DNA of 64,000 nt from an uncultured archaeon (GCA_964388035.1 CAYLZE010000004.1:1-64000), one strand, 5' to 3'; positions 1 to 17,803 are shown, counted from the first letter of the stretch. Numbers and translations are program-made. Notes: generated by a model not told the origin, from the sequence alone.

Positions 1-56
1 TATACAAGCTATAAATTTTCTAACAGAATTGTTTATTCTTCTAATCGATCTTGAAT

Positions 57-102
57 ATATTGAAGGAATCTTCTATTTAATATTGAAAGAATCTTCTATT
101 TT
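57..102. repeat. Two tandem 23-bp imperfect direct repeats (ATATTGAARGAATCTTCTATTTW)
   Basis: 57-79 atattgaaggaatcttctattta vs 80-102 atattgaaagaatcttctatttt, 21/23 identical. Confidence 0.7.
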
Positions 103-139
103 AAATGTTGTAAATCAATTTCTAATATCATTGATATTA

Positions 140-160
140 ATTTCTAATACTATTAGAAAT
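140..160. promoter_or_regulatory. Perfect 10-bp inverted repeat with 1-nt spacer (possible operator)
   Basis: atttctaata-c-tattagaaat; AT-rich, so a chance match is possible. Confidence 0.3.
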
Positions 161-306
161 ATTAAATGCTAATCCCGTTAACTAATGGATGTTATCTTCC
201 ATTATTGCATAAATAATGAACGATATTAAAATTAAGTAGGAAGTAGGAGTTAGAATCAGCTTTTAGATTGATAGGAAACTAATCATGAGAAAAATTTATA
301 GCGCTA

Positions 307-513
307 CTATAATTTATCAATAAAATCATTGACCTCTTCCATGCGTTTTTCGTAATATTCCTTGAGATCTTTCTCGGAGACAAAAGAGGGGATTACTTTT
401 TCGGTGAACACATCAAAAATAGTCCTAAGCTTTGCTCTATGTCTGATTGTCTCGATAACTTCCTTCCCAATTCCTTCTACTTGGTCTAAGAGATCTTTAA
501 TCCTTTCTGAAAT
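307..513 (-). CDS. Small helical hypothetical protein (68 aa), probable ATT start, coupled to the activase gene
   Basis: SD GGAGGTG (527-521) lies 7 nt before ATT at 513, just after the activase stop; amphipathic protein-like sequence ISERIKDLLDQVEGIGKEVIETIRHRAKLRTIFDVF...; the ORF-track start at 558 would overlap the upstream gene. Confidence 0.65.
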   Translation of the reverse strand: MSERIKDLLDQVEGIGKEVIETIRHRAKLRTIFDVFTEKVIPSFVSEKDLKEYYEKRMEEVNDFIDKL

Positions 514-514
514 G

Positions 515-1540
515 TTAAAACACCTCCCACTTGCCGCATCTTGAACCCCAGCGGGCAATCACATTATCATCTTCTTCGGCTAATTTGACTTGCACGATTT
601 CACAATTATTAGGGCAATCTCCGCAATAAAAAGTCGATGTTTTAAAATTTAATTGGGAAACATCTAACCCCCTAAAACTCGTTTCCGTTTGTTTTTCTAA
701 ATATTGATCTCTGACTAAAATAGCTATGCCTAAGGCACCCATTAATACATTATGTTTGGGTACCAATACTTTGAGACCTAATTGCTTTTCAAATGCTTTG
801 ACTATCCCTTTATTAAAGGAAACACCACCTTGGAAAACCACCGGCTCTATTAATTCTTTTCCCTTTGCTAAATTATTCAGGTAGTTGCGTACAAGCGAAT
901 CACATAATCCCGCTATAATATCTTCACGCGAATGACCTGAATTTTGTTTATGGATCATGTCCGATTCTGCAAAGACCGTGCATCTCCCGGCGATGGATAC
1001 GGGATTTTTTGATTTTATTGCATAATCACCAAAATCTTCAATAGGGATGCCTAAACGAGAAGCTTGATGATCTAAAAAGGAACCCGTTCCTGCTGCACAT
1101 ACGGAATTCATGGCAAAATCCACGATGATTCCATCCCGTAAGATGATAATTTTAGAATCCTGTCCTCCAATCTCCAGTATCACTCTAACATCAGGGAATT
1201 CATGTTGGGTAGCTACAGCGTGAGCTATTATTTCTGTCTTGGCTAGATCTCCTCCCACCACGGCTTTTGTCAAATATCTTGCGGAACCCGTCGTGCCACA
1301 CGCTTTAATATCATAATCTTGCAAGGTTTCTTCATCAGCTATTTTCTTTTTTAATTGCGCCATGCCATCTTTTACTGATTCAATAGGAGAACCCTTGTTT
1401 CTTAAAAAAACACTGGTTAATACATTCCCTTCGACATCAATCAAAACAAACTTTATCGAGACAGAACCAACGTCTATACCTAAAAATGCTTCTTTTTTTA
1501 CTTCTTTAACGTTTGAGTCTTCATCTGCCGATTCAACCAT
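515..1540 (-). CDS. CoA-substrate-specific enzyme activase (BcrAD/BadFG/HgdC ASKHA ATPase, Fe-S) with C-terminal Cys cluster; PlsA/Ger activation-domain-like
   Basis: GIDVGSVSIK, GTTGSAR, EIGGQDSK, MNSVCAAGTGSFLD, GRCTVFAESD, FQGGVSFN; C-terminal CGDCPNNC...SRCGKW. Confidence 0.9.
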   Translation of the reverse strand: MVESADEDSNVKEVKKEAFLGIDVGSVSIKFVLIDVEGNVLTSVFLRNKGSPIESVKDGMAQLKKKIADEETLQDYDIKACGTTGSARYLTKAVVGGDLAKTEIIAHAVATQHEFPDVRVILEIGGQDSKIIILRDGIIVDFAMNSVCAAGTGSFLDHQASRLGIPIEDFGDYAIKSKNPVSIAGRCTVFAESDMIHKQNSGHSREDIIAGLCDSLVRNYLNNLAKGKELIEPVVFQGGVSFNKGIVKAFEKQLGLKVLVPKHNVLMGALGIAILVRDQYLEKQTETSFRGLDVSQLNFKTSTFYCGDCPNNCEIVQVKLAEEDDNVIARWGSRCGKWEVF

Positions 1541-1556
1541 CTTTTTTATTCACCTC

Positions 1557-2747
1557 TTATTTCGCATATATTAATTGTGCACATTCTTTATAAAACTGGT
1601 TTCCAATCTCTATTTCAGATGGAACTTTTGAAATTTCTTCTTTCCCGCTCTTTTTTATATGAGTTCTTCTTGAGTCCATGAGGTCAACAAATGCTTCTAA
1701 GCGGGTCCGAAAACCTTCCATTCCAGAATGTTCGTCAAAAGAGAAGAAAATTACGGGGAGATCGTAAATTCCTTTAAGCTTATTGGTGATGATCGTTCGT
1801 GCCGTTACCTCTGGCATGCAAGTGAAGGGATATACATGTACAAATCCATCAAACCCGCTTCTTGCTCTGTCGATATATTCCCCAATAACCCAGACCGCCT
1901 CTCCACCAATATCCATTGGAATATAAGGATGGGATAAATGTTCTAACCACTTTCTGTGAAAATTTAAATGAAATTTATGAGAAACCCAGTCCCACAAACT
2001 CAAATTTTGATGAATTTCGCACCCTAATTCGCCCAATTTTTTCCTAATATCCAAATTTACATAAGTCTCCAAGCTAATATGGATTTCACCTGTGAGGGCA
2101 ACTTTAAAAGGTTTTTTAGTTTTATCAACATCAAGCTGATTGAAGTCGTCTTTAATAATAGTTTTAAAAGTACGTAAATCTTTCAAGTTATTGGTCTGAT
2201 CGAGTTTTATCAATAAATCTTTCACTACCTTTGTTGTATCTCCTTGATTTCGCTCGTATGCTCGAAAAATCCCTTCTGCTGTCTGGATATCGCTTAACAA
2301 TTTCGCTTTTTTCAGGAAAAAAATAACTGCTCTCAGCATGTTTGAGTAAAGAGCTAACGTGTTTTTTGGGGGAGATAATTCATAGAGCGTTTTTACCCAA
2401 TGAAATTCTAATAAGTCCGCTTGATCAAGGGGAATGATTCTAATATCTTTGTATCCGATATCCTTCAGAATTCTTTCTTGGGTTGCTTGATAAAATCCAA
2501 AACGGCATGGTCCGCAGTCAATCGCCATTACCAAGGTATCGGCCCCTTTTTTAATTGCATTTACGAAGTCCCCTAAGGTTGCTTTAAAAGGAAAACATAC
2601 AAATTCAGGGCTATGTTTAACGCCAATTCTAATTGCTTCGCGGTTTGTCGGATCGGGTAAAATAACTTCGATATTGGGGTCTAATGCTGTGAATAGCGTT
2701 TTGAAAGCGACCCAATTGGGGCCCATATTAGGAAAAGACAGTTTCAT
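1557..2747 (-). CDS. 2-hydroxyacyl-CoA dehydratase/reductase-related Fe-S subunit (PlsR-like)
   Basis: SPEFVCFPFKATLG, CGPCRFGFY, PFTCMPE, DEHSGMEGFRTRLEAFVDL; likely start at ATG 2747 (MKLSFPNMG) behind AGAGG. Confidence 0.85.
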   Translation of the reverse strand: MKLSFPNMGPNWVAFKTLFTALDPNIEVILPDPTNREAIRIGVKHSPEFVCFPFKATLGDFVNAIKKGADTLVMAIDCGPCRFGFYQATQERILKDIGYKDIRIIPLDQADLLEFHWVKTLYELSPPKNTLALYSNMLRAVIFFLKKAKLLSDIQTAEGIFRAYERNQGDTTKVVKDLLIKLDQTNNLKDLRTFKTIIKDDFNQLDVDKTKKPFKVALTGEIHISLETYVNLDIRKKLGELGCEIHQNLSLWDWVSHKFHLNFHRKWLEHLSHPYIPMDIGGEAVWVIGEYIDRARSGFDGFVHVYPFTCMPEVTARTIITNKLKGIYDLPVIFFSFDEHSGMEGFRTRLEAFVDLMDSRRTHIKKSGKEEISKVPSEIEIGNQFYKECAQLIYAK

Positions 2748-2926
2748 GCGTTCGAGTTCCTCTTTTTTCCACAAATTAGCTAATTATTTTACTATAGTTG
2801 CAAATGAATCAATCATTAAAATTTTGATTAGATGATTCATTTCACCAATAATAAAAATTGTTAATATAAAAAATTACCTAACTAAAACCGATGATTATTG
2901 ATATGGTTAGGAGAAGTAATTTTAAT

Positions 2927-3895
2927 TTATATTAAATCTTTAATGACGTCCTTGTAAAACTCTAATTGAGGATTCAGCTCAAAAGCGTTCGGAAAATACA
3001 TGAAAAAATTAGAAAATCCTAAATTTATAAATTCTTCCATAATTTGCCTTAAATTTTCACTGGTTCCAATTAAGAATTTATCTCGATAATGAGATAAGGT
3101 ACAATTTGGAGCAAGTGTTCTTTTCAAGTGATCATCGATTTTCTTTTTTTCCCAATTTATTATAACAGGACATAATAAGGTCTTTTCAATATTTTCATCA
3201 TCTCTATCACACTCCTTCGAGTATTCTTTTAAAGTAGCGAGTTTTTTCTTGAGATACTGAATGCCCTTGATGGCGTTAAAATTTGACTTGTCTGCATGCT
3301 TCGCAACTATTTTTAAGGTCAATTTTTCTCCTCCCCCTCCTATCAAAATTTTCGGCGGATTTTGAATGGGTTTGGGATAATTTAAAGCACCTTGTATTTG
3401 ATAATATTTTCCCATATAACTTGTTTCCTCCTCGGTCCACATTTTTTTAACAATTTCCACTGCTTCTTCTAACATTTCCAGTCTGATGGAATTCTTCAAA
3501 TAGGTATAACCAAATGAAGAGTATTCCCTTTCATGCCATCCCGCCCCGATTCCAAATTCCATTCTTCCATTAGATATAACATCTAAGACAGAGGAAATTT
3601 TCGCTAGATATGCAGGATTGCGGTAGGAATTACATGACACTAACTGTCCTAATCGAATTTTAGAGGTTATGGCTGCTAATGCTGTTAACGTGGTAAAGCA
3701 TTCAAACACGCTTTCTTTCATTTCTATGGGATAAGAATGAAAATGATCATATAATACCGCAGAATCATAGCCTAATTTTTCAACTTGCTGAGTGATTTTT
3801 GCTATTAATTTCCATTGATCATGGCTTTTCAATCCATCGGGCAAATCAAGACGCCATCCTTGAGGAACGATCATTCCGAACTTTAATTTCGTCAT
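2927..3895 (-). CDS. LLM-class (probably F420-dependent) oxidoreductase
   Basis: KFGMIVPQGWRLDL, YDHFH, RNPAYLAK, GIGAGWHEREY, IGGGGEKLTLKIVAKHAD. Confidence 0.9.
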   Translation of the reverse strand: MTKLKFGMIVPQGWRLDLPDGLKSHDQWKLIAKITQQVEKLGYDSAVLYDHFHSYPIEMKESVFECFTTLTALAAITSKIRLGQLVSCNSYRNPAYLAKISSVLDVISNGRMEFGIGAGWHEREYSSFGYTYLKNSIRLEMLEEAVEIVKKMWTEEETSYMGKYYQIQGALNYPKPIQNPPKILIGGGGEKLTLKIVAKHADKSNFNAIKGIQYLKKKLATLKEYSKECDRDDENIEKTLLCPVIINWEKKKIDDHLKRTLAPNCTLSHYRDKFLIGTSENLRQIMEEFINLGFSNFFMYFPNAFELNPQLEFYKDVIKDLI

Positions 3896-3952
3896 CTTCT
3901 AAAATCTACCTTCTCTAAACCTATAAAAAAGAGTAAAATGGTATAGTTGATA

Positions 3953-4792
3953 TTAATTCCATTGAAATTCTTTATTAAGATCTGCGGCCAGAGAGTTAAA
4001 CAATTCTTCATGAGCAGGTAAAAGTTCTTTTTTCCATCTCAGATCTAATTTAATTTCTAAAGGATGATCCACATAATATTGTCTCTGATGACCATTTAAT
4101 TGTAAATAAGTTAAATTTTGATTAACCTTGGTGATTAAGGATTGCGTACCCGTGTTACCTCCTAAAGGATGGTGCGTGAATCGATAATATTCCTCTAAAT
4201 TTGATTTGTAATTAATCTCAAGAAAATTACAAGTTTCCTTCGCTAACTTGGCGGGATTTGTGGCAAGTTCCTCATAGTGAATTTTCATTTTCTTACCATT
4301 AGACTCATTGAATAATTTATTTGTTAATTCTATTTGATTTTTCCAATCCTTGATTAATTGGATAACGTCCATGTCAGGATATTTTCTTATTCTTGAATTA
4401 ATTACTGCCCTTCCATCTCTTTGAATATAGATAAGGTATATTTCAGTTGAGTTTTTTTTAAGAATATCAATTTTTTCAGTTATCCATCTCGTATTTTTGG
4501 TTGAATCGATGATAATGGGTTTATTAGTAAGCCTTGAAAGTTGTTCATATAAATCGATTGAACCTTTTGGATCTACTCTGCTCCAAATAGGACAAGATGG
4601 TCCACATAACTTACATATTCCCGATTTCTTTCCATCGCTTGGTTTATTAATGAAGCGTGATTTATTTGCTTCCCCCGCATAAAAACAAGAAGAATGACTT
4701 CCTAAAATTAACCCTAATAGCGTGGATCCTGAATGACCTGCTCCACAAATGAAACATGTTTTCTCATTTGATCTTTCGGGTTTTTTAGTCAT
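3953..4792 (-). CDS. Sulfotransferase family protein
   Basis: 5'-PSB loop CGAGHSGSTLL, IIDSTK, RDGRAVINS 3'-PB motif, HYEELATNP. Confidence 0.85.
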   Translation of the reverse strand: MTKKPERSNEKTCFICGAGHSGSTLLGLILGSHSSCFYAGEANKSRFINKPSDGKKSGICKLCGPSCPIWSRVDPKGSIDLYEQLSRLTNKPIIIDSTKNTRWITEKIDILKKNSTEIYLIYIQRDGRAVINSRIRKYPDMDVIQLIKDWKNQIELTNKLFNESNGKKMKIHYEELATNPAKLAKETCNFLEINYKSNLEEYYRFTHHPLGGNTGTQSLITKVNQNLTYLQLNGHQRQYYVDHPLEIKLDLRWKKELLPAHEELFNSLAADLNKEFQWN

Positions 4793-4815
4793 GGCAAACT
4801 AATAATAGATATTGG

Positions 4816-6201
4816 TTATAATAATTCCGCCAATTCCTCCTTCAATTTAACATCAGGAAAAGGCTCGTGGATTATTTTCAGGTTTAAAAAAGTGCAAAGC
4901 TTTTCCCATCCATCTCCTGCACAGATATCCATAATTAATAAAGAATTGGAGCGATCCTTGAAATATTCCAGCACATTTGCCAGATGAAGATCATAAACAT
5001 ATGATAAACGCTCTTCATTGAAAACATATGTGCCATACACGGCAGCTCTTAGAAATCTGCGCATTTTAAGATGGATGTCATTTTGTTTTGGATCCTCAAA
5101 AGGAGGTCTTTCTTCCCAATGTTTTTTAAGAGATTGGAGCCACGATGATTTTTCTCGAATAGTCAGAATGAATTTACTATTAGGATAATGCTTATCTAAC
5201 TGAACATAAAATGGTGATACCGTTATATCCGAAATTCCATCATAGTCGTTCAATATGGATAAATCATACTTCCCAGTTGTGAGTTCTTCGAATGTTATTT
5301 TGTCATCGGGATAATGAGAAATATTATATCCTAACATGTCTAAGGCAAGGGTAAGACTCTTAGTACTTGTTCTACTAAGACCGATACAAAAAATTTTCTC
5401 TTTTTTATTTTCAAATTGCCCCGTTATGTTAATGGCTGCCTTTAAATCCAAGACTTCCTGAAGTTTTAATACTTTTTTTTCTTTTAACCCCATTTTATCA
5501 AGTTCCGATTTCGCGATGGCCGGAAGTGTCTGGATATAATCCGCAACCACTTTGGGAGTGGCATCCAAGGGTACATTATTCTTCGCATGATTTATTGCTT
5601 TTCTTGCAACTAAAAAATCGGTATCATCATATTTCCAATTCTCAACACAGATCTGAAGTTTAAATTTTTGATATGCATTTCGACTTCTTAGCTCTCTAAT
5701 GGCATATTTAAGGTAAACTTGGTGATAATATTGACAAAAATCATGCAATATTTTGAATTTTTTAAAGGTCTTTCCTTCCTTAAGTTTTTCCAGTGCAAGA
5801 TTTCGCCTTCGAGATTCAGGTCTGAGGATATACTTCAAATCATCTTCTGGCATATTTATCTGCTTCATGGTTTGAACTACATCCATCCGCGTAACATGCA
5901 CCCCCATGTGGACAAATCCTCTGAATTTATCCAAAACAAAGCAATCCACGTACGGTAAAGTATTCTTATTCAAAAATGGTCTCATATCTTCGAAAATGAA
6001 GCAATCAGCGTCCATGAACACCACGTAATCAGTATCATCATTGTACTGAATTTTCATGATTTCTTCCATGGTTCGGGAAAAAGGAGTGATATTTTCAATC
6101 AAATGCACTTTATCAGGGCTGATATTTTTTAACGCAAAATCTAAAGCAATATTTCTGGTACGTTCACCATTCGACCTAAAAACTAATTCAATTTTTTTCA
6201 T
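4816..6201 (-). CDS. Fusion: N-terminal GT-A glycosyltransferase-like domain + C-terminal sulfotransferase-like domain
   Basis: N-term YVVFMDADC (DxD); C-term IFCIGLSRTSTKSL, YPNSKFILTIRE..SWLQS, GDGWEKLCTFL...PFP. Confidence 0.75.
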   Translation of the reverse strand: MKKIELVFRSNGERTRNIALDFALKNISPDKVHLIENITPFSRTMEEIMKIQYNDDTDYVVFMDADCFIFEDMRPFLNKNTLPYVDCFVLDKFRGFVHMGVHVTRMDVVQTMKQINMPEDDLKYILRPESRRRNLALEKLKEGKTFKKFKILHDFCQYYHQVYLKYAIRELRSRNAYQKFKLQICVENWKYDDTDFLVARKAINHAKNNVPLDATPKVVADYIQTLPAIAKSELDKMGLKEKKVLKLQEVLDLKAAINITGQFENKKEKIFCIGLSRTSTKSLTLALDMLGYNISHYPDDKITFEELTTGKYDLSILNDYDGISDITVSPFYVQLDKHYPNSKFILTIREKSSWLQSLKKHWEERPPFEDPKQNDIHLKMRRFLRAAVYGTYVFNEERLSYVYDLHLANVLEYFKDRSNSLLIMDICAGDGWEKLCTFLNLKIIHEPFPDVKLKEELAELL

Positions 6202-6681
6202 TAAACTATTTTCCGATCTTTTTTCTTCTCTAATTTTAAAATTAATTAAAAAAATTCTTTCTTTTCGTCAATAAAAAATATTTTCGTGAGAATTCCTAAG
6301 ATCCCGAACTAGATTTTTTATAATTCAATAATTTATTCTTAATCTTTTCTGATACTTAAGTTTGGTTTATTTCCTATAGAATTTCAATTGGTTCTTAATT
6401 GAACTCAGTTTTTTTTAACTTATGAAAAAATGGAAATTATACTATCTAAAACGTTATGACTTTTTAAATTTTTTCACTAATTCCCTATTATCAAAAAACG
6501 TGTTATTCAGATGTAAATCTTTGGAAGGATTGGTCTTTTTTAATTTTTATAATTATTCCAAAAAATAAATTATCCTCTAAAAGATATAAAAGATCTTTTG
6601 TAAGTATAAGAATTGGTCTCCTTCTTATTTAATTTATAAAAAAGATATATTCGTCTATAAACATCTTTTTAGTGGGACAAG

Positions 6682-7626
6682 ATGGAATTAGCAATTGAAA
6701 CAGTTAAGTTAAAAAAAAATTTCAAGGAAATTCATGCTGTGAATGAAATAGACTTGCAAGTACCGAAAGGAAAATTGTTTGGTTTCCTCGGTCCTAACGG
6801 TGCGGGTAAAACAACAACCTTATCAATGTTAAGCACCATCCTTCCTCCTACCAGCGGAAAAGCCACTATTTTAGGATACGATTTAAAGAAAGATGCAAAG
6901 AAAATTAAAGAACTTATTGGTGTATGCCCTCAAGATAATGTCCTTTATAAAAGACTCACTGCAAGAGAAAATATTCAACTTATCGCCCAAATGCATGGTT
7001 TAAGTAAAAAAGATTACAAAGAAAGATTGGATGATTTACTGGGTAAAATGAACCTCTTGGATCGAGCAGATGATTTGGTTAAGAAGTATTCTGGAGGAAT
7101 GCAAAGAAGGGTAAATGTGTTGATGGCAGTTATTCACGATCCCGAAGTCATCTTTTTTGATGAACCCAGTGCAGGCTTGGATCCTCAATCGCGTAGGGCG
7201 GTGTGGGACTTTATTAAAGATTTTCAAAAAAAGAATAGTACTATAATGTTAACGACGCATAGTATGGAAGAAGCGGACGATCTATCGGATGAATTAGTAA
7301 TCATCGATCAAGGCAAGATCATTGCACAAGGAACACCTGATGAGTTGAAACGACGATTAGGCGAGGGAGATGTTATTGAATTCAAGGTGGAGGAAAAAGA
7401 TCAAGAAAAACGTGGGGAGATTGTTACCAGATTAAAGCAATTGAAATTCATCAAATGGGCAAAAGAAGTTGGAAAAGGAAGAATAATTTTGAACGGTTTA
7501 GATAGTTTGAGAAGAATTTCAGAAGTTATTGATGCGGTTCAAGTGAAAATGCTTGATATTTCAATACGGAAAAATACATTAGAAGATGTTTTTCTTGATT
7601 TAACGGGGAGGAGGTTGAGAGAATAA
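6682..7626 (+). CDS. ABC-2 exporter ATP-binding subunit (DrrA-like)
   Basis: GPNGAGKTT, YSGGMQRR, FFDEPSAGLDP, TTHSMEEAD, TLEDVFLDLTG. Confidence 0.95.
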   Translation: MELAIETVKLKKNFKEIHAVNEIDLQVPKGKLFGFLGPNGAGKTTTLSMLSTILPPTSGKATILGYDLKKDAKKIKELIGVCPQDNVLYKRLTARENIQLIAQMHGLSKKDYKERLDDLLGKMNLLDRADDLVKKYSGGMQRRVNVLMAVIHDPEVIFFDEPSAGLDPQSRRAVWDFIKDFQKKNSTIMLTTHSMEEADDLSDELVIIDQGKIIAQGTPDELKRRLGEGDVIEFKVEEKDQEKRGEIVTRLKQLKFIKWAKEVGKGRIILNGLDSLRRISEVIDAVQVKMLDISIRKNTLEDVFLDLTGRRLRE

Positions 7627-8771
7627 TGAGTTCTTATAAAAGGACACATGGAAAAAAGAATATTAGATTATGGGCGTTAGTTGTAAAAAATTTAAAAATA
7701 ATGTTTCGGGATAGAGCCCAATTAGTTTGGTTAATTGGATATCCGTTAATTTTTATTGTCATCTTTTCTTTGGCATTTAATCAGACGGAATCACGTTCCG
7801 CGTATGATGTAATCATTATTAATCATGATCCCGAAACGGGTACGACGGCCTATTCCCGAAAAATGATTAACATCATTAAGGACGAAGTGAACGATTACGT
7901 GCATTTAGTAGGAACGGAGAATAATTATACTTACGAAGCCGCTGAGATAGAATTAAAATATGAGAGGATCGATGCGATAATTGTAATCCCTTCAAATTTT
8001 TCAGAAAACATCAATAAACAAAAACAACCGTATGTTTTCATCAAGACAATTCCTGATGAAGTGACGGAAGGGGTAATTACTTCAATTGTTACACAGATTG
8101 TAGACTATATGATTGTTGTCCGAAATGGCGGGAAACCGGTGAAGATCTCGACAACTCAACTTGAAAACACGATAAAAATTACCACGTTTGATTACCTTGC
8201 TCCAGGGTTTGTAATTGCGGGAGTTCTTGTATGCATTAGTCAAATGGCAATACTTTTTGCGGAAGAAAAGGAAACCCAAACCTTAAAGCGATTATGCACT
8301 ACTCCCGTGCCGAGAAGAGATATTTTATTCTCCGGCATGCTTTCTCAATTGGTAGTGGCTACGATTCAAACGATTTTGCTCTTATTTTTATTATATCTAT
8401 TTGGAGCCTATTTCGTTGAAGGAGTTAATATTTTCCTTTTAATCTTAATTCCCGTGTTATTTGCGTTTACTTGTTTAGGATTAGGACTTTGCTTAGCATC
8501 GATCACCAAAACGCAATCTTCCGCAGGAGAATTATCCTGGTTCATCATTCTTCCCCTCCAATTTTTAGGTGGATTATTCTTTTATTTTGATAGTCCCATC
8601 ACTCAATTCATGCCGACATCTTATGCCGCCCATGCCATGCGATTAGTAATGATAGCGGGAGCAACCTCATGGAATGCGATAGGATTAGATATAGTAGTAA
8701 TTTTAGGAGTAGGAATTGTTTCAACGATCATTGGCATCCTTTTATTCCAACATAAAACTGCAATCCTTTAA
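7626..8771 (+). CDS. ABC-2 exporter permease
   Basis: TAATG overlap with the ATPase gene; one N-terminal TM, extracellular domain, five C-terminal TMs; EEKETQTLKRLCTTP. Confidence 0.92.
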   Translation: MSSYKRTHGKKNIRLWALVVKNLKIMFRDRAQLVWLIGYPLIFIVIFSLAFNQTESRSAYDVIIINHDPETGTTAYSRKMINIIKDEVNDYVHLVGTENNYTYEAAEIELKYERIDAIIVIPSNFSENINKQKQPYVFIKTIPDEVTEGVITSIVTQIVDYMIVVRNGGKPVKISTTQLENTIKITTFDYLAPGFVIAGVLVCISQMAILFAEEKETQTLKRLCTTPVPRRDILFSGMLSQLVVATIQTILLLFLLYLFGAYFVEGVNIFLLILIPVLFAFTCLGLGLCLASITKTQSSAGELSWFIILPLQFLGGLFFYFDSPITQFMPTSYAAHAMRLVMIAGATSWNAIGLDIVVILGVGIVSTIIGILLFQHKTAIL

Positions 8772-8831
8772 ATGAGAAAATAGATGGTCATAAATTTATA
8801 CTAATTCTAATTTTATCCTCGATTTATGAGG

Positions 8832-8849
8832 TTTTTTTTTTTTTTTTTT
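8832..8849 (+). terminator. Oligo-T (T18) archaeal-type terminator after the ABC operon
   Basis: 18 consecutive T about 60 nt downstream of the stop codon. Confidence 0.55.
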
Positions 8850-9356
8850 CCATAAATTTATAATTAGTTCATGGATTCTCCCGGGTGTTTGAAGATGAGG
8901 AGGTTCTTGAAAAAAGTAGAAGAATATTTAATAATGCCGTTATCCATGCAAGAGAACGAGTCTGCTTGCCTTTCTTGTCTGAAATTTGAAGACTTAAAAG
9001 ATATGACATTATAAGGATTTTTGAATTTAGCTCTCAACTAGATGCTAAAATCTATTGGAAATCTATTAATATATTCAATATAGAAGATAAGAAGAAAGAA
9101 ATAGGATTTAATCTTATTGTCAATTAAATAATCGATTTTACAAGTGGAGCTTTTTTAATGATTTTAAATACAACTTTTGATAGATTTAAAAAAGAATGAT
9201 AAAGATACGATGATAAAGATAATATATTTCGTTTAAAGATAAAAAAAAATTAAAGTTCTTCTTCATTTCTTTCTTTCCACCTGACCCATTTAATATTAAT
9301 TATCATTATTTTTATCTAATAGTATTAAAATTACGTGGAATATTGTTATTATTATC

Positions 9357-10286
9357 ATGACTGATATCATCACAATTGGAGAATTATTAATAGACTTGAT
9401 TGGTCAAGAAGGGAAAAGTCTCAAAGAAACAGAGATATTTAAACGATTTCCTGGAGGTGCCCCTGCGAATGTTGCTGTGGGGATAGCCCGACTGGGTGGG
9501 AATGTTGGCATAATTACCAAGGTTGGAAATGACTTCTTTGGAGATTTTTTACTAAGTAAATTAAAAAATGAAGGAGTTGATACTAGTCAAATTTCAGTTG
9601 ATCCACTTTTAAAAACAGGGCTTGCCTGGGTGGGATTGGATGAAGAGAAAAAACCCACATTTGCATTTCACAGGACTCCCTGTGCCGATTTAAATTTACA
9701 AATGAGAGATATAAATACGGAATATATCAAAAGAGCAAAAATTCTCCATTATGGTACCGTATCTTTAACCAACGAGCCATCAAGATCGGCTATTTTTCAT
9801 GCTGTCAACCTTGCTAATGAACAAGGACTTACTATATCCTGTGATCCTAACTTTAGAAAGGATTTATGGAAAGATGAAAATCCTTATCCATTACTTCTAA
9901 AACTTATATCAAAAACTCAAATTTTAAAGATTTCTCGAGAGGATGCCATAGGATTAACCGGAGACGCATCAGATGAAGCCTTTCATGAACTACTTAATAA
10001 AGGACTTGAAATTATCCTCGTAACGATGGGAAATAAAGGAACACGTGCTATAACTAAGGATAAAGAATATAATGCTCCTGCGTTCAAGGTTAATGTTGTT
10101 GATACTACTGGAGCGGGAGATGCTTTCATGGCTGGTTTCCTTTACATGTATCATAAAACAAAAGAAATACACAATAGCTTAATAATGGGAAATAAGGTTG
10201 CTTGTTTATCCCTCACAAAAATGGGTGCCACGAGCGCCCTCCCTAACTTAAAAGAAGTCAATGGATATAATTTTATCCCTAATTGA
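9357..10286 (+). CDS. PfkB-family carbohydrate kinase (fructokinase-like)
   Basis: GGAPANVAVGIARLG, DPNFRKDLW, VDTTGAGDAFMAG. Confidence 0.93.
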   Translation: MTDIITIGELLIDLIGQEGKSLKETEIFKRFPGGAPANVAVGIARLGGNVGIITKVGNDFFGDFLLSKLKNEGVDTSQISVDPLLKTGLAWVGLDEEKKPTFAFHRTPCADLNLQMRDINTEYIKRAKILHYGTVSLTNEPSRSAIFHAVNLANEQGLTISCDPNFRKDLWKDENPYPLLLKLISKTQILKISREDAIGLTGDASDEAFHELLNKGLEIILVTMGNKGTRAITKDKEYNAPAFKVNVVDTTGAGDAFMAGFLYMYHKTKEIHNSLIMGNKVACLSLTKMGATSALPNLKEVNGYNFIPN

Positions 10287-10409
10287 TGATTATCCTTAAA
10301 AATGATAGCTTTTGAATATGCGGGTACTACCTTACCTTAAATTAAAAAAAAAAAGTTAAAAAAAACTAATAAAGATAAAATTTGCTCATTAATTTAATAG
10401 TAAAAAAAA

Positions 10410-10745
10410 TTAAGGTTGTTCTTCTTGTTGTTCATCTTTTCGCTTATCAAGAGCATTATCGAGTGAATATCCAATCCCATACAATTTCTTCCGCTCCGTT
10501 GTAATTTCTTTCTCTCCGCTTGGCCATTTAATATTAATTATCATGCCAAGGACGATTAACACGATCAAGAGAACAATATAAAGTGCTAAATTTCCGTAAG
10601 GTAATACGCTTGCTATAGCATTTAGAATTGTGGATAAAAAAGTGCCAAGTGGTAGTAAGAACGGAGAAAAAAATCGCACTATATCTCTAACGCCTTCTGC
10701 AAAGTTTTTTAAAAATTCTCCGTACAATAAAATGTAAAATATCAT
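10410..10745 (-). CDS. Small membrane protein
   Basis: Hydrophobic helices and charged tail; SD GAGGTGA upstream; last gene of a tightly spaced 3-gene operon. Confidence 0.7.
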   Translation of the reverse strand: MIFYILLYGEFLKNFAEGVRDIVRFFSPFLLPLGTFLSTILNAIASVLPYGNLALYIVLLIVLIVLGMIINIKWPSGEKEITTERKKLYGIGYSLDNALDKRKDEQQEEQP

Positions 10746-10771
10746 TTTGATTTTTCACCTCAGATTAATCT

Positions 10772-11233
10772 CTATTGCTTATAAAACGTGTAATTTAATA
10801 AATTTAATACATGAACGATTATCGAAAGAAAATAGATTCCCATAAAAAACATGAATAGGTTAGTGAGATCGACGGTAAATATGATGACATCCATGATAAC
10901 AATATTAATCAGCGTTACGTTTGATATAGCATAAATCCAAATGTAGAGACAATTAAAAAATACCAACACGACTTTAAAAGCACCCCTTCTAACTGATTTC
11001 TTTGGGGAAGAATGTGCCAAGAATGCCAAGCCACAAATAAGAAATCCAAGAGCAAAGATCCAAAAAGTAATTTGTTCATATTTCTCTTGTGTCAACCCTA
11101 AATATACATAATCTTGTACGCTCGATGTTAAACTATAAATGTACGTAAAAATAGTATAAGGAATAATAATCGTGCCGACTACATATAAACCAAGCCATAT
11201 AAATCCTTTAACCATATTTGTAGTTGCTCCCAT
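10772..11233 (-). CDS. Four-TM membrane protein
   Basis: Four hydrophobic segments; SD AGAGGT upstream. Confidence 0.75.
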   Translation of the reverse strand: MGATTNMVKGFIWLGLYVVGTIIIPYTIFTYIYSLTSSVQDYVYLGLTQEKYEQITFWIFALGFLICGLAFLAHSSPKKSVRRGAFKVVLVFFNCLYIWIYAISNVTLINIVIMDVIIFTVDLTNLFMFFMGIYFLSIIVHVLNLLNYTFYKQ

Positions 11234-11243
11234 AAAATTACCT

Positions 11244-11762
11244 CTAAAAGACTAATTGCGTTTGAATACTAATCCCTACAAAACTGAGGGAATAACGTCC
11301 TCCAACAAGTATATCCATTCGGAATTCGATTGGCCCAGGATTTCGAAAAGTTTGATGTAATATTTCAATGACGTTTTCTTGTAAAAAATCATTAGGTCCC
11401 ACCTTATATTCTGATTTCAATGTTTGTCCTGCCGATATATTTCCAAAGCTCTTATACTTACTAAAGATTAATTTAGCTTGATTGCCATAAATAGCAGTGA
11501 GATTGATATAGATATAGATATCTTGAATATTATAGAAACCTTTATTGGTAATTGAAAACGGAAGAGTAAAATGCAAATGGTTCCAGTCAAAAACATTAAA
11601 GTTGTAGGTAATATTACCGTCAGGCACCTTGATATTATCTTCGGGATCAGAAACGATTAAATACACGGAATAAATGCTAAAAGCTGAATGAAGGATTAAT
11701 AAAACACTAAGAAAGATAACAAATATTCTTGTTGCATGTTTCAAAATGCTAAAAATGTTCAT
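11244..11762 (-). CDS. Membrane-anchored protein with LEA-2/Ig-like beta domain
   Basis: N-terminal TM, then LPFSITNKGFYNIQDIYIYINL, a pattern typical of LEA_2-like folds. Confidence 0.65.
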   Translation of the reverse strand: MNIFSILKHATRIFVIFLSVLLILHSAFSIYSVYLIVSDPEDNIKVPDGNITYNFNVFDWNHLHFTLPFSITNKGFYNIQDIYIYINLTAIYGNQAKLIFSKYKSFGNISAGQTLKSEYKVGPNDFLQENVIEILHQTFRNPGPIEFRMDILVGGRYSLSFVGISIQTQLVF

Positions 11763-12098
11763 TGCTCGTTTTTCAACTTTTTTTTTAGATTTAGTAAATA
11801 ATATAATTATGCATTTAAATTTCTTTATGAAATTTTATATTTTGAACCTTAAAGATAGTCTTAAATTATAAAACCAAAGAATAAATACATGGAAAAATGA
11901 GAGGTTCCTCTCCGAGGTAATTAAGTATCTTTTTCTCAAATATAATAATTTAGAGAGTAATTACACCTAAAAGCAAAACTTAAAGACGAGAAACATGAAA
12001 AATTGCTTTTACATTATAATTTATTTTTAAATGGATTAAAAAATATCTGTTTCTGAGATGTGTATATGAATGCTATCTTATTTAAACAATATCTCTCA

Positions 12099-13136
12099 TT
12101 AAAAGGCGCTAATTTCCTTTTTCCGGGGTTTTACATTGAAATACTTTTTTTTCCGGCGTACCATTTCCACGAACGATTGGACTCTTGTTAATAGACCTGC
12201 CTCGCCGCTATGTTCATCCATTATGATTTCCAGAAAAGGTATTCCTACTACTTTCATATCTCGCATGATTAATTCTGATATGAGACTATCCGGACCACAA
12301 GCAAAACTGATTAAAAAGATGACCCCATCTATTTCTTTTTTTCCTTTAGTTAAGAAATAGCGTATGGCTTGCATTATTTCTTCTTCATGAGTCCAATAAT
12401 TCCTGAGCTTTTTATTTACTATAACAGGGACCTTAAAAATAGATGAGGGCAAGTTTTCTATGGTAATAGAATCGGCTCCCTCCTCTCTTAATTTTCGCTG
12501 GAAATTCAAATTAATGTAAGTGTCAAATAAATTATAAGAATGTCCTAATAGTAGAAATTTTAAATCCAATTCACTTTTCTTTTTAGGTACAGTAAAGGGG
12601 ATATTTCTTTCAGCAAGTATTAGAGCATGAAGTACGGGGGCTCCTGCCCTTAAAATGGCGTGGTATTCCTCGAAGTAATTTCTTGCGGTTTTATATGCTT
12701 CCAAGGCTTTAGTTTCACTTTTATTTAGCTCTTTAGCCAATTGAATAACGGATGAGATTATAGGAAATTCTTTCACATTCACTTCAAAATTCAATATTTT
12801 CGGAACATTTGGGAGAATTTTAATCACATCTGGTAAGGAGAGAAATTTTGGACAGAAATATGATTCTTTTACTTCGGAAACATACCGAGGAACAAAAAGG
12901 TAATCCAAATCGGGATGATCGTGGAGTAATCTCATGACATGGCCATAATAGAGCTTAACGGGAATGCATAATTCTCCAAATCCGTGTTGTACACCCTGTT
13001 CAACAATACTTTTATTTGTAGGGGGACTTAAAATTATCTCTGCTCCTAATTCCTCCAATAGTTTTTTCCAAAAAGGGAAATATCTATAAAAATGCAGCGC
13101 TCTTGGAATCCCTACTTTAGGTTTTGCGATAGACAT
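12099..13136 (-). CDS. DUF2229-type acyl-CoA dehydratase activase-related Fe-S subunit (PlsA reductase-domain-like)
   Basis: KVGIPRALHFY..PFW, ELCIPVKLYYGH, YFCPKF, LLGHSYN, SFACGPDS, DEHSGEAGLLTRVQSFVEM; probable start MSIAK at 13136. Confidence 0.88.
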   Translation of the reverse strand: MSIAKPKVGIPRALHFYRYFPFWKKLLEELGAEIILSPPTNKSIVEQGVQHGFGELCIPVKLYYGHVMRLLHDHPDLDYLFVPRYVSEVKESYFCPKFLSLPDVIKILPNVPKILNFEVNVKEFPIISSVIQLAKELNKSETKALEAYKTARNYFEEYHAILRAGAPVLHALILAERNIPFTVPKKKSELDLKFLLLGHSYNLFDTYINLNFQRKLREEGADSITIENLPSSIFKVPVIVNKKLRNYWTHEEEIMQAIRYFLTKGKKEIDGVIFLISFACGPDSLISELIMRDMKVVGIPFLEIIMDEHSGEAGLLTRVQSFVEMVRRKKKYFNVKPRKKEISAF

Positions 13137-13437
13137 GGTTGTATTTTTTATAATGTCCACTTTAGAGTTATCTAATAAATATCTTTTGTTTAGAAAATAC
13201 TTTACGATAAAATTGAATAATTATAACCACATTCACTTTCATTGGGACCATTAAAAGTATAAAAACTTTTTAATTCTAATAGAGCATTAAAAAAATTCAC
13301 ATATGTTTTATCATTTTTTTTATAATTTTCACAAGAAATAAATCCAAATAGCTTTTTCTCACGAATACTAGATTGCATCGAATTATATCTAAAAATTAGT
13401 AAAAAAAGTATAGAAAATGTAAATAAAAATCCTGATT

Positions 13438-15129
13438 TCAAGCTTCGGGTGTATCATACATGAGTAAGTTTTTTATTTGACTCATCATGGATTCCGTTAA
13501 TCGCTTTAACTCGTCATAATCCGGAACTTCAGTATATTTCAAATGTTCCGTGAATGCGGGACCCGCTTTCATGATGACACCTCTGCCAAAATTCAACATC
13601 TTTGCGTGTTTTGGATATACTTCCTCCGTACCCGTTATTCCAACTAAATAAATAGGAACTTGCGCCTCAATCGCCAGACGTACTGGTCCTGTATGCCCTT
13701 CTAATAATTCTCCTCCGCCAGAATTAGTCGTTCCTTCGGGATAAATAATTACCCATTTGTTATTTTTTAACAACTCCAGCGCATAATTATAAGAACCCAT
13801 ATCACTTTCTCCTCTCGTTAGCGGAAATGCCCAACACGATCGTACCCACGCGTTTACAATAGGAATTCTAAATAAGGACTCCTTGGATTGTTGATAGACT
13901 ACTTGTCCTCGTTGTTGAAAGGAAGTTGCTAAGATGATGACATCCCATTCGGAATTATGGTTGGAACATATAATGGCTCCCGAATCCTGTTGAATTGGAA
14001 TATATTTATCATAATCGACTCTTTTATAAGGACTCATTATATCACTAAAAGCATCCACGACATTCCCCGAAAGATGATAAACAAACTTTTGAAAATGTTC
14101 ATTAGCATCAAATACTTGCAATGCTCTAATTAAAGCGTACCAGGAATCATCCCATAACCATAGAAAATCATTTGTCAGTTTCTTTATTATTCCTTTTGGA
14201 CTTAATGAACTAGACTTTTTCTCTATTTCTTTAGGACTCCCGATTGATAATTCTTGAGCTTTTTTCTTGTCGGGTTCTGTGTTATAATCGAGCAAATCCT
14301 GAACTTGCTGACGCAAATCATTGCTTAAATTAATGAGATCCTGTGGCGAAACTGTATTGATATCATACTCATTGTAATACACCGGTTTTCCCACCCTCAC
14401 TTTCACGTTCGCGGGCTTCATGACCAATTTACCTTTAGGCAAGGCATTTTCAGAACCTATTACTGCCATTGGAACAATGGGACAGTGAGTTTCGATAGCT
14501 AATCGAACTGCTCCTGTTTTAAATTCCCCAAGAGATCCATCCTTCGAGCGGGTAGCTTCTGGAAATATGCCTACCCATTGACCGCCTTCTATAATCTCTT
14601 TGGCAATATCTAAAGCTTCTTGAACATCCTCCTTGTTTCCTCTCTCTCCTAATGAAAATGCACCCAAGTTTTTAAAGAGAGTACGCACTAAAGGAGTTTT
14701 AAAATTCTCATCTTTGCTCATCCATTGAATTCTTTGTTGCATGGCGCCGCCATAAAAGAAAGGATCTAAATGTGATTTGTGATTTCCAATGAGAATTCCC
14801 CCCCCATATTCTGGAAATAACGTTTTATAAACATTTTCCACTTTATAATTCCAGAGGGTCCTCATCGTGAACTTAACATAAATGTAAGCCGCCCACCATT
14901 GTAATTCTCCTTCTTCTTTACTCCAATGCATCTTTTCTACAAACCAGCGCCAGAGGTCATTTATTGGATCGATAGGATTATATTTTGAAATCTTATAGGT
15001 TAAAGATTGATGAGTTTTTGTGTAAATTAACTCTCCCTTTTCATCAACTTGGACGCCCTCGTATTTAGGTTTTACGATATCCATCGAATTTTCTTCATAC
15101 TCCTTCTCTTTTTGCTCAGAAAATTCCAT
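13438..15129 (-). CDS. plsC: Tandem two-domain PlsC-family (lysophospholipid/glycerol-phosphate) acyltransferase
   Basis: Domain 1 NHKSHLD...FPEATRS...FKTGAVRLA; domain 2 NHNSEWD...YPEGTT...HTGPVRLA; both keep the catalytic HxxxxD. Confidence 0.9.
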   Translation of the reverse strand: MEFSEQKEKEYEENSMDIVKPKYEGVQVDEKGELIYTKTHQSLTYKISKYNPIDPINDLWRWFVEKMHWSKEEGELQWWAAYIYVKFTMRTLWNYKVENVYKTLFPEYGGGILIGNHKSHLDPFFYGGAMQQRIQWMSKDENFKTPLVRTLFKNLGAFSLGERGNKEDVQEALDIAKEIIEGGQWVGIFPEATRSKDGSLGEFKTGAVRLAIETHCPIVPMAVIGSENALPKGKLVMKPANVKVRVGKPVYYNEYDINTVSPQDLINLSNDLRQQVQDLLDYNTEPDKKKAQELSIGSPKEIEKKSSSLSPKGIIKKLTNDFLWLWDDSWYALIRALQVFDANEHFQKFVYHLSGNVVDAFSDIMSPYKRVDYDKYIPIQQDSGAIICSNHNSEWDVIILATSFQQRGQVVYQQSKESLFRIPIVNAWVRSCWAFPLTRGESDMGSYNYALELLKNNKWVIIYPEGTTNSGGGELLEGHTGPVRLAIEAQVPIYLVGITGTEEVYPKHAKMLNFGRGVIMKAGPAFTEHLKYTEVPDYDELKRLTESMMSQIKNLLMYDTPEA

Positions 15130-15188
15130 TTTATCAACTCCTCGGTCTTGTTATTTTTTTTAATTAATTTTATTATTTTTTCTTAAAT

Positions 15189-15935
15189 TTAATTTCTTTT
15201 ATTATTAATTAGTTCTAATAACTCATGAAAAGAATGTATTAAAATATCTGGGTGATACTGAGCTAAAACCTCTTCATTGCTTACTCCACTTGCCAATCCA
15301 ATCGTCCAGAATCCTGCTTCTCTTCCAGCTTCGATATCAGATGGCATATCACCAATCATGACAAACTCTCGAGCTTGACACTTTTCATAAAGATCAAATA
15401 CCGGCTGAAATGCCTTTGGGCTGGGCTTTAATTCGACTAATTTATCCATTCCAAAGATTCCTTTAAAATACTTCTCCAATTCCTCTTTTTGCAAATGTTC
15501 CATAATCGATCTTGTCTGATTGTGAGAAACAATATAGAGATCATAATGCTTGGATAAATATTCCAGCATCTCTTTAGATCCCGGCAAAATAGAGGCATCT
15601 TTTGAATAATCTAAATATCGTGTAAATAATTTTATCGCAATTCTCAATTTTTTTAAAAAGGTCTGTTTTTCAAGGGATGAGATCCCCTTGAAAATGTCAT
15701 AAGATTGTAAAAGAATTTTAGGAATAGGATGTCCTTGAATGGATTCTAAAACAGTACCGATTTCTTGAATGGTTTGCTCCTTTTCCAGATGAAGATTATA
15801 ATATTCAAACACTTCTACAACGGAATCTTCAAGTGCCTTTTTGATATCGAGCAATGTGCCATCAAAATCAAAAATAATTCCACGTAATGACTTTTTCTTA
15901 AAGCTTTCGACCAGTTGTTCCTTACTCATCGTCAT
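15189..15935 (-). CDS. HAD-superfamily phosphatase
   Basis: IFDFDGTLLD (motif I), VSHN, KPSP, IGDMPSD (motif IV). Confidence 0.9.
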   Translation of the reverse strand: MTMSKEQLVESFKKKSLRGIIFDFDGTLLDIKKALEDSVVEVFEYYNLHLEKEQTIQEIGTVLESIQGHPIPKILLQSYDIFKGISSLEKQTFLKKLRIAIKLFTRYLDYSKDASILPGSKEMLEYLSKHYDLYIVSHNQTRSIMEHLQKEELEKYFKGIFGMDKLVELKPSPKAFQPVFDLYEKCQAREFVMIGDMPSDIEAGREAGFWTIGLASGVSNEEVLAQYHPDILIHSFHELLELINNKRN

Positions 15936-16453: not shown

Positions 16454-17803
16454 ATGAAGAGTGAAAATGGTCTTATTGAACGAAAGAAAAGTAAAACAAG
16501 TAAATTCATCATTTTTGCGACGCCCTTTTATTCTACATCTCTCTTAATGGGCTTTGCAGACATTTCCTTGGCTACACTATACATCTTGGCATATCAAGTG
16601 CCCCCATTTTTCGTAGGCATTGCTTTAGGTATGGGAAAAATCACTATTGCTTTTTCAGAATTTTTCTTTGGATGGTTAAGTGACTCGAAATATACGCGGT
16701 GGGGAAGAAGAAAACCATATATAATTATTTTAAGTCCCATTCTTGGACTATCCTTCATATTACTCTTGCTACCCAGCCTCATAATTGATATCAACAATAT
16801 TGGTGCTGTTTTTATTTGGTTATTGGTCACATATCAACTTTTTAACTTGAGTTATGGAATTTCATCGCCATTTAATGCCTGGATGGTGGAACAATTTAGC
16901 ATAGATGAGCGTCCAAAAGCAGCCCAGTTTCAAACAATCTTTGATCTTTTCGGAGTGGGAACCATGTCCGTATTTTCCCTAATTATAATGACAGGTTTTA
17001 TTGCTAAAATTAAGGAGACTCCAGGATATGTTCCTCCGGATTTTTCCTATTCTGTTCTTGTATTTGGCATAATTTCGGTAATAATTTTCTATCTTGCTGC
17101 TATTTTAATGCCAACGGAACCCCATTTTAAAATTGAATCAACCATGTTCCAGTATTTAAAAATAGTACTCAAAAATAAAAATTTTTTAATAGTTACTTTA
17201 ATGATAGGGATTGCAAGTTTGGCTTGGGTGCAAGTTTCTTCCTTAATATTATTGTTTATTGAGGTAGTCTTAACTTTCGAGTCTACAACATACATTATTG
17301 CCGCCGTGATTTTTCTTTCAGGAATAATCGCTTTTTTGAGCTTATGGAGGAAGTTAATAGAAAAGTTTGGAAAAAAGAGAAGTCTTATATATGATATAAT
17401 CGCCGCTATTCTGTTTCTCCCATTAACGTTATTTGCTTTAATCCCCATGCAGTCCACCGTTATTTACGGAATCCTGTTTATATTAGGAATTTCAGGAATT
17501 ATCTCAGGGTGGCAGATTTTTCAATATATCATGATTCCGGACATTTCTGAAGATGATGAAAAGAAAACGGGTGAACTGAAAGCAGGTACTTTCAAGGGCT
17601 TTCCAAGCATACCCTTGAACTTCTTTCAAGCCATAGGGTTGATCATAATGGGAAGTGTATTGGAATTGCCAAGTATTACCGTAGGTACTTCTGCCTTTTC
17701 TATTGGTTATATCTTATGGGGACCAGTATGTTCTCTAATATTAATTGTTGCCCTAATTTATACCAAAAAATATGTTAAAATAGATTTCGAATGGGAAAAA
17801 TAA
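16454..17803 (+). CDS. MFS sugar transporter, GPH/MelB-like (paralogue 1)
   Basis: GWLSDSKYTRWGRRKPY, about 12 TMs, PDISEDDEKKTG. Confidence 0.9.
   Translation: MKSENGLIERKKSKTSKFIIFATPFYSTSLLMGFADISLATLYILAYQVPPFFVGIALGMGKITIAFSEFFFGWLSDSKYTRWGRRKPYIIILSPILGLSFILLLLPSLIIDINNIGAVFIWLLVTYQLFNLSYGISSPFNAWMVEQFSIDERPKAAQFQTIFDLFGVGTMSVFSLIIMTGFIAKIKETPGYVPPDFSYSVLVFGIISVIIFYLAAILMPTEPHFKIESTMFQYLKIVLKNKNFLIVTLMIGIASLAWVQVSSLILLFIEVVLTFESTTYIIAAVIFLSGIIAFLSLWRKLIEKFGKKRSLIYDIIAAILFLPLTLFALIPMQSTVIYGILFILGISGIISGWQIFQYIMIPDISEDDEKKTGELKAGTFKGFPSIPLNFFQAIGLIIMGSVLELPSITVGTSAFSIGYILWGPVCSLILIVALIYTKKYVKIDFEWEK

Follow-up and report, generated by a model that had tools for sequence, protein, structure and literature searches.

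A conserved archaeal operon joining PlsC-type acyltransferase genes to a candidate three-component iron-sulfur enzyme related to PlsA and Ger

Two enzyme systems reduce glycerol acyl esters to alk-1-enyl or alkyl ethers in bacteria: the anaerobic plasmalogen synthase PlsA/PlsR, encoded by CPE1194/1195 in Clostridium perfringens and present as single-gene PlsA in Enterococcus, Lactococcus and Bifidobacterium, and the glycerol ester reductase Ger of Thermotoga maritima (Tmari_0479) and Desulfatibacillum alkenivorans (SHJ90043). Single-gene PlsA has the domain order Act1-Act2-Red1-Red2 (PMC12838417). The architecture of Ger is BBDHDDH, and its BBD portion is conserved in all of the ether producers tested (PMC13159169). 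Here we describe a related locus in a 64,000-nucleotide stretch of DNA from an uncultured archaeon (GCA_964388035.1, CAYLZE010000004.1:1-64000; hereafter the window). The locus encodes a HAD-IA phosphatase, a tandem PlsC-type acyltransferase (PlsC2), two related iron-sulfur subunits (RedB and RedA), a stand-alone ATP-dependent activase and a small open reading frame (ORF; s83). The locus is an interrupted copy of a conserved archaeal operon in which glycerolipid-type acyltransferases would work together with a three-component, ATP-driven [4Fe-4S] radical enzyme, for which the conversion of acyl esters to ethers is a plausible but tentative role.

The acyltransferases and the three reductase components form one functional set, because the genome has no other members of their families and the genes are contiguous in relatives. 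This bears out the linkage between a reductase subunit and an acyltransferase that had been proposed in an initial annotation of the window. The assembly (5.47 Mb, 96.7% complete) has a single BcrAD_BadFG gene and no more than two DUF2229 genes, each of which is inside the window. Three PF01553 domains were found in the genome, two of which are the halves of PlsC2 and the third a 5'-cut gene at the end of another contig (C28). The host is an Asgard archaeon, as had been suspected, because the nearest relatives of its RedB (73–86% identity) are proteins of metagenome-assembled genomes (MAGs) labelled Promethearchaeota, Thor-, Hermod- or Lokiarchaeota.

In five loci from the same GTDB family, the genes for HAD, PlsC-PlsC, RedB, RedA, the activase, the small ORF and a third PlsC follow one another without interruption, and in a sixth the operon is contiguous as far as the activase. 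The HAD orthologues are 49–57% identical and lie directly 5' of the tandem PlsC in most loci of the family, whereas homologues of s83 occupy the same position in the five complete loci (47–63% identity). A neighbouring family, which includes loci titled Promethearchaeum sp., has the same order with the tandem PlsC split in two genes. There, the PlsC, PlsC, RedB, RedA and activase genes are contiguous in three closed genomes (4.36, 6.04 and 4.32 Mb), and the layout recurs in four further loci. Thus, the contiguity that the initial annotation had proposed to look for in relatives is found, closed genomes included.

We also compared the coordinates of PlsC2 and RedB matches from two phylum-wide searches covering 151 genomes. 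Twenty-six genomes had a PlsC2 match as well as a RedB orthologue, and in every one of them PlsC was directly upstream of RedB and on the same strand. RedB and PlsC2 were each present in 24 of the 25 genomes of the host's own family and in both genomes of the neighbouring family. The adjacency, with gaps of ~6–110 bp, is kept across families in which RedB is only 42–48% identical; orthologues within the family share 65–79% identity. The order of the RedB, RedA and activase genes was read in more than 70 loci, and a RedA-type gene adjoins RedB, directly or with the activase between, in most of the bacterial and archaeal sets seen. The window has the composition of such a set: a RedB in the range of ~330–350 amino acids (aa) with Cys57, Cys95 and Cys280, and RedA-type and activase genes alongside, from which RedB is parted by the insert only. 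Relatives lack this 9.3-kb insert: their RedB and RedA genes adjoin each other or are parted by other inserts of 1–5 kb.

The third PlsC gene probably belongs to the same locus. The first base of the window is also the first base of its contig, and s83 ends 306 bp from it. The gene in the last 600 bases of contig C28 of the host assembly (L116:5208-5801) is 60–68% identical to the third PlsC of relatives and lies on the strand expected were the end of C28 to join the start of the window. Because the window starts so soon after s83 and C28 ends in a third-PlsC orthologue, the two contigs probably abut; we found no sequence overlap between the C28 end and window positions 1-306, and a short gap remains. 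MAG contigs often break a few hundred bases past RedB or just before RedA (four examples: G071:C116, G065:C127, G049:C59 and G008:C82), and paralogous DUF2229 and activase copies in the clusters may confuse assemblers at these points.

A Woesearchaeota contig (CAYWEY010000002.1, 7072-11370) carries the genes in a different order (PlsC, RedB, activase, RedA), the stops and starts of neighbouring genes overlapping. The genome of this DPANN archaeon is ~1.3 Mb, and its RedB falls inside the Asgard clade, next to a group of FAD-fused RedB proteins. Such a placement suggests transfer between archaea and lipid remodelling in the recipient. By analogy with other DPANN archaea, the Woesearchaeota host is probably unable to make lipids de novo.

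An ORF listing and Pfam and NCBIfam scans of the window recovered, on the minus strand, the HAD, PlsC-PlsC, RedB, RedA, activase and small-ORF genes that the initial annotation had listed (Table 1). The small ORF is where it had been placed, but it runs for 83 aa from a TTG start and not for 68. The HAD protein has both the DxDxT nucleophile and the C-terminal acidic motif of the HAD-IA family. PlsC2 scores 160.5 bits against TIGR00530 (cut-off 103), and each half keeps the two catalytic motifs of PlsC/LPAAT enzymes (PF01553, TIGR00530), HxxxxD and (F/Y)PExT, as NHKSHLD/FPEATR and NHNSEWD/YPEGTT. It departs from the usual PlsC/LPAAT in joining two domains in one protein and in belonging to an archaeon that also has a geranylgeranylglyceryl phosphate (GGGP) synthase. 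RedA and RedB are 21% identical over 358 aligned positions (E 4e-14). The motif DEHSGxxGxxTR, said to end both iron-sulfur subunits, is indeed in both (MDEHSGEAGLLTR and FDEHSGMEGFRTR), but it is near the C-terminus and not at it. The activase scores 186.5 bits against TIGR00241 (cut-off 125.4) and contains the CAAGTG and GRCTVF motifs with the cluster-bridging cysteines; it is of the electron-injecting BcrAD/HgdC type.

Table 1. Features of the acyltransferase-reductase locus, with positions counted from the first base of the window.
Feature	Position	Strand	Evidence and remarks
HAD-IA phosphatase	15189..15935	-	First gene of the conserved operon; PF13419 1.7e-26; FDFDGT and GDMPSD motifs intact
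PlsC2, tandem two-domain PlsC-type acyltransferase	13438..15129	-	563 aa; two PF01553 stretches, total 8.1e-55; TIGR00530 1.6e-47
AT-rich PlsC2-RedB spacer	13137..13437		~300 bp; ~6–110 bp in relatives
RedB, DUF2229 iron-sulfur subunit, Red1-like	12099..13136	-	PF09989 6.9e-47, positions 1-216 of 218; C-terminal HGD-D tail
Operon-splitting insert	2927..11762		~9.3 kb; luciferase-like monooxygenase, two sulfotransferases, ABC-2 transporter pair, PfkB kinase, three small ORFs (Pfam)
Three consecutive small ORFs	10410-11762	-	172, 153 and 111 aa; downstream of RedB
RedA, second iron-sulfur subunit, Red2-like	1557..2747	-	Weak DUF2229/PF09989 match (1.9e-08); HGD-D tail
BcrAD/BadFG-type ATP-dependent activase	515..1540	-	341 aa, stand-alone; one PF01869 domain 7.7e-45; TIGR00241 5.8e-55; C-terminal four-Cys motif
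s83, small conserved ORF after the activase	307..558	-	83 aa from TTG start (68–83 aa); no family match

The relationship between the two iron-sulfur subunits was also modelled. Built from family alignments, a RedB-RedA heterodimer reached an ipSAE of 0.77 (best control 0.00), a mark that 58 of 80 solved complexes reached, against 2 of 110 mismatched pairs. The model runs had at least 95% of contacts in common, the pLDDT of the partner was 86, and the interface contained the cysteine-bearing loops of both chains. RedA and RedB are thus modelled as a heterodimer with cysteines at the interface. Because the similar HadBC complex is solved, the score may partly reflect likeness and is no proof of binding.

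The domain plan of the set is like that of PlsA and Ger, as the initial annotation had claimed: an activase, a DUF2229 subunit in the place of Red1 and a second subunit in the place of Red2, each Red with an HGD-D tail, and with invariant residues in common. PlsA/PlsR has the same parts list, with one or more activase modules and two reductase or dehydratase-like modules, and the same three-cysteine sites. Cys57, Cys95, Cys280, D307 and R318 of RedB are invariant over 103 members and in both families; Cys51, Cys81 and Cys310 of RedA are likewise invariant. Furthermore, the CxxCxxxC...C tail of the activase aligns with the Act2-Red1 linker of a fused Asgard protein. The DUF2229 search also returned matches in the control genomes of Thermotoga maritima and Lactococcus lactis. 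The differences lie in the fusion state and the setting. The parts are in three genes with a single PF01869 domain in the stand-alone activase, whereas PlsA/PlsR has two fused N-terminal activase domains. RedB is ~24–30% identical to the fused Red1 domains and sits in an operon with PlsC acyltransferases, and the function of the set is predicted from its genes. Ger has the same domain types, but in the arrangement BBDHDDH instead of B, D..H and D..H in separate proteins; the BB fusion is not present here.

In the ester-to-ether reading, the PlsC domains would esterify fatty acyl chains onto glycerol-phosphate or a lyso-lipid acceptor, and the HAD enzyme would strip the phosphate from an intermediate. 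An activase homodimer would then use ATP to deliver a low-potential electron to the clusters of RedA and RedB. These three-cysteine clusters could reduce the new ester carbonyl via a ketyl radical to yield an alk-1-enyl or alkyl ether, as in PlsA/PlsR and Ger. Counted in support of this reading is a PlsA/PlsR-like fused pair inside the same cluster in several relatives. Many genomes of the family have such a pair beside the operon, with an Act-Act-Red1 protein of 865–985 aa followed by a protein of ~465 aa.

Several lines of evidence weigh against ester reduction, the first of which come from phylogeny. In a maximum-likelihood tree of 103 domains, RedB of the three-gene sets and fused PlsA/Ger-type Red1 were split with an SH-aLRT of 99, the fused group being represented by Clostridial (two loci) and Asgard proteins as stand-ins for PlsA/PlsR/Ger and not by the characterised sequences. 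The Asgard members of this fused group are open frames of ~980–1430 aa, the two longest of which are cut by locus ends. The set therefore does not group with the fused PlsA/Ger-type stand-ins. Scores against the RedB profile were also bimodal (339–458 bits for three-gene sets and 105–175 bits for fused forms), and R12, H199 and E308 of RedB differ systematically from the fused forms. Clostridial genomes hold both the three-gene set and the fused form. This coexistence, which is also seen in relatives of the host, suggests that the two families are probably not redundant. Given the separate clade, the bimodal scores and the invariant cysteines, D307 and R318 shared despite the differing R12, H199 and E308, the sequences identify the RedA/RedB/activase set as a family that is sister to PlsA/Ger and has the same catalytic scaffold, and not as an orthologue divided over separate genes. 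The earlier description of the set as a split PlsA/PlsR/Ger-like reductase thus gives way to that of a distinct stand-alone family.

All RedB sequences of archaeal sets in the tree fall in one clade (SH-aLRT 97), which includes the PlsC-less group of FAD-fused paralogues and has as its sister group two bacterial sequences, of which one comes from an Omnitrophota genome. An exhaustive HMMER search identified the nearest non-Asgard relatives of RedB as stand-alone proteins of ~330 aa with 33–42% identity. In total, 423 clusters at 50% identity score below E 1e-30 against RedB, and the family is widespread in anaerobic bacteria. RedB, RedA and activase sets occur in Bacillota, Actinomycetota, Omnitrophota, Nitrospirota, Chloroflexota, Atribacterota and Armatimonadota, in this order in most of them. 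These are true family members, yet they have no PlsC neighbour and their contexts vary.

The contexts of these other sets belong with the evidence against a lipid ester substrate. For 42 of the 43 bacterial sets, 79 upstream genes were compared, and none was a PlsC gene; the commonest families among them were GerA, ApbE, class-II aldolase and SpoVA, with an LPG-synthase transmembrane protein twice. Another Asgard family (four loci) has its RedB and RedA genes flanked on one side by an aminotransferase gene with an ornithine cyclodeaminase-like (mu-crystallin) gene and on the other by a GNAT acetyltransferase gene, without PlsC. This context would suit a 2-hydroxyacyl-type dehydratase with amino-acid-derived substrates, and the pairs are probably paralogues that act on another substrate. 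To our knowledge, no substrate has been assigned to any member of the three-gene family. Because the bacterial and other Asgard sets have no lipid neighbours, a lipid substrate is not to be assumed for the whole family, and it is the archaeal PlsC-linked clade, by its gene context, that points to one. The last item on this side is a lipid study of the first cultured Lokiarchaeote, which reported archaeal lipids only, with a method that may have missed others (PMC13400652).

Some of the bacterial contexts are recurrent. The set is often just downstream of the sporulation or germination genes gerA and spoVA in Bacillota (7 and 3 of the 79 upstream genes, respectively). In two loci, titled Thermoleophilia and Actinomycetes, it follows polysaccharide deacetylase and LPG-synthase transmembrane genes, and a third contig (L014, Thermoleophilia) also has a glycosyltransferase gene at this place.

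An enzyme of this kind could instead act on the acyl donor. HadBC/HadI and HgdAB/HgdC likewise combine an ATP-driven activase with a heterodimer of two related three-cysteine [4Fe-4S] subunits. By this explanation, a 2-hydroxyacyl-CoA-dehydratase-like or other CoA-thioester radical enzyme would make an unusual acyl-CoA, with an enoyl or otherwise modified chain that PlsC then transfers. Solved relatives are limited to beta subunits of 2-hydroxyacyl-CoA dehydratases (3o3m_B, 4.6e-05 over 62 residues; NF052456 HadC, 6e-04), the amino acid-related genes beside the other Asgard sets are a context of amino-acid-derived 2-hydroxy acids, and relatives have thiolase, 3-hydroxyacyl-CoA dehydrogenase and 4HBT thioesterase genes in the neighbourhood. 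However, the HGD-D (PF06050) match covers profile positions 282-341 of 342 only, the ~60 C-terminal residues, and the body of the protein is DUF2229, the PlsA/Ger domain. We found no solved PlsA-type structure, and the PDB matches were to the C-terminal tails of HadC-like subunits only. The operon has neither CoA-transferase nor 2-hydroxyacid dehydrogenase genes, and its linkage to three acyltransferase domains and a phosphatase points to lipid assembly. The initial annotation had named a grouping with dehydratases and a loss of the plsC linkage as signs against its proposal; what we see is likeness to HadC confined to the C-terminal tail and a conserved linkage. Action on the acyl donor is, on balance, unlikely.

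It is also doubtful that the enzyme acts on a lipid-bound acyl chain by some other chemistry, such as in-chain dehydration or reduction, or on the head group through a radical, making the operon a lipid-remodelling module. The conserved PlsC link speaks for this possibility. The residues that differ from PlsA/Ger (R12, H199 and E308) may mark another substrate or reaction, and the adjoining PlsA/PlsR-like pair of relatives suggests non-redundant roles. Yet no positive evidence favors any specific alternative chemistry, and the cluster ligands and the DEHSG...TR motif are common to the ester reductases. That the iron-sulfur enzyme and the acyltransferases share no pathway and are neighbours only by co-inheritance is very improbable: the 9.3-kb insert and 300-bp spacer that part the genes here and the bacterial sets without fixed neighbours would fit it, but the same-strand adjacency holds across families with diverged RedB proteins and, despite another gene order, in a DPANN archaeon, and the two gene groups are co-distributed in both Asgard families.

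If esters are the substrate of the PlsC-linked set, a further step can be contemplated, though it is improbable as a whole. Non-isoprenoid or hybrid glycerol ethers would be products of Lokiarchaeial Asgard archaea, probably also of cultured ones, and of at least one DPANN archaeon; PlsC would acylate glycerol phosphate or a mono-ether such as GGGP, and the stand-alone RedA/RedB/activase enzyme would then reduce the ester. Because relatives keep a PlsA/PlsR-like pair beside the operon, the three-gene set could be the reductase for the second (sn-2) ester, leading to dialkyl ethers. Genes for GGGP synthase (188 bits) and for a PlsY homologue are present in the host genome, and the former indicates that canonical archaeal ether lipid synthesis is present alongside. 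A search of the genome for glycerol-1-phosphate dehydrogenase and GpsA gave weak generic matches only. No fused PlsA/Ger-type form of 980–1500 aa and no FAD-fused second set were found in the genome with DUF2229 and BcrAD_BadFG searches; it has lost the PlsA/PlsR-like pair or never had one.

Ger homologues have been published from Heimdallarchaeota and from Lokiarchaeota, the cultured strain among the latter (PMC13159169). Those matches must be the fused forms of 980–1500 aa that are absent from the host genome, because at least 30% coverage was required of a protein of ~1400 aa (a length estimated from the fused forms studied here).

Other genes accompany the operon in the window and in relatives. 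An MFS_2 transporter gene (16454-17803) is divergent from the HAD gene, and MFS genes are also near the operon in two relatives; its position makes a role in the pathway possible. A 79-aa ORF (13202-13441) in the PlsC2-RedB spacer had no match in Pfam or NCBIfam and is probably spurious. We found no homologues of s83 in the bacterial three-gene sets; they are clear in the host's own family only. The three small ORFs downstream of RedB had no Pfam or NCBIfam match and no homologues in related loci. Relatives also have a second paralogous set in which a RedB-like DUF2229 protein (~800–840 aa) is fused to an N-terminal VAO/PCMH-type FAD_binding_4 domain and followed by its own activase and RedA paralogue (L009:6128-8641, minus strand, and five other loci). 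This fusion makes it conceivable that an FAD-dependent reduction is coupled to the iron-sulfur enzyme. We rejected alkyl-DHAP synthase as the identity of the FAD domain, as the best PDB matches were cytokinin dehydrogenases (9e-20) and AGPS scored 5e-04 only. The sulfotransferases of the insert (3953-6201) have homologues with 51–60% identity in two other Asgard MAGs, a few kb upstream of FAD-RedB fusion sets (L050:467-2737 and L052:14-781), so that sulfotransferase genes are found repeatedly close to DUF2229 sets.

Fatty-acyl lipids of the bacterial type are found in eukaryotes, whereas the archaeal relatives of eukaryotes are thought to make isoprenoid ethers only, and how the switch arose is an old question. 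Genes for PlsC and PlsY in Loki- and Thorarchaeota are already published (PMC6737245; PMC6431249), and a review of March 2026 describes Asgard lipids as largely unknown (PMC12993045). In the literature that we searched on DUF2229 and on Asgard archaea with PlsC, plasmalogen or Ger, no paper on the operon link or the three-gene family was found. Thus, Asgard PlsC/PlsY and Ger homologues were known separately, and what is new is the conserved operon joining every acyltransferase gene in these genomes to a PlsA/Ger-like radical enzyme. The 423 clusters around RedB also flag a large uncharacterised enzyme family in anaerobic bacteria. Furthermore, close relatives of the host are likely in culture, and the presence of the operon in three closed genomes of a family with Promethearchaeum-titled loci makes the question testable by expression and lipidomics.

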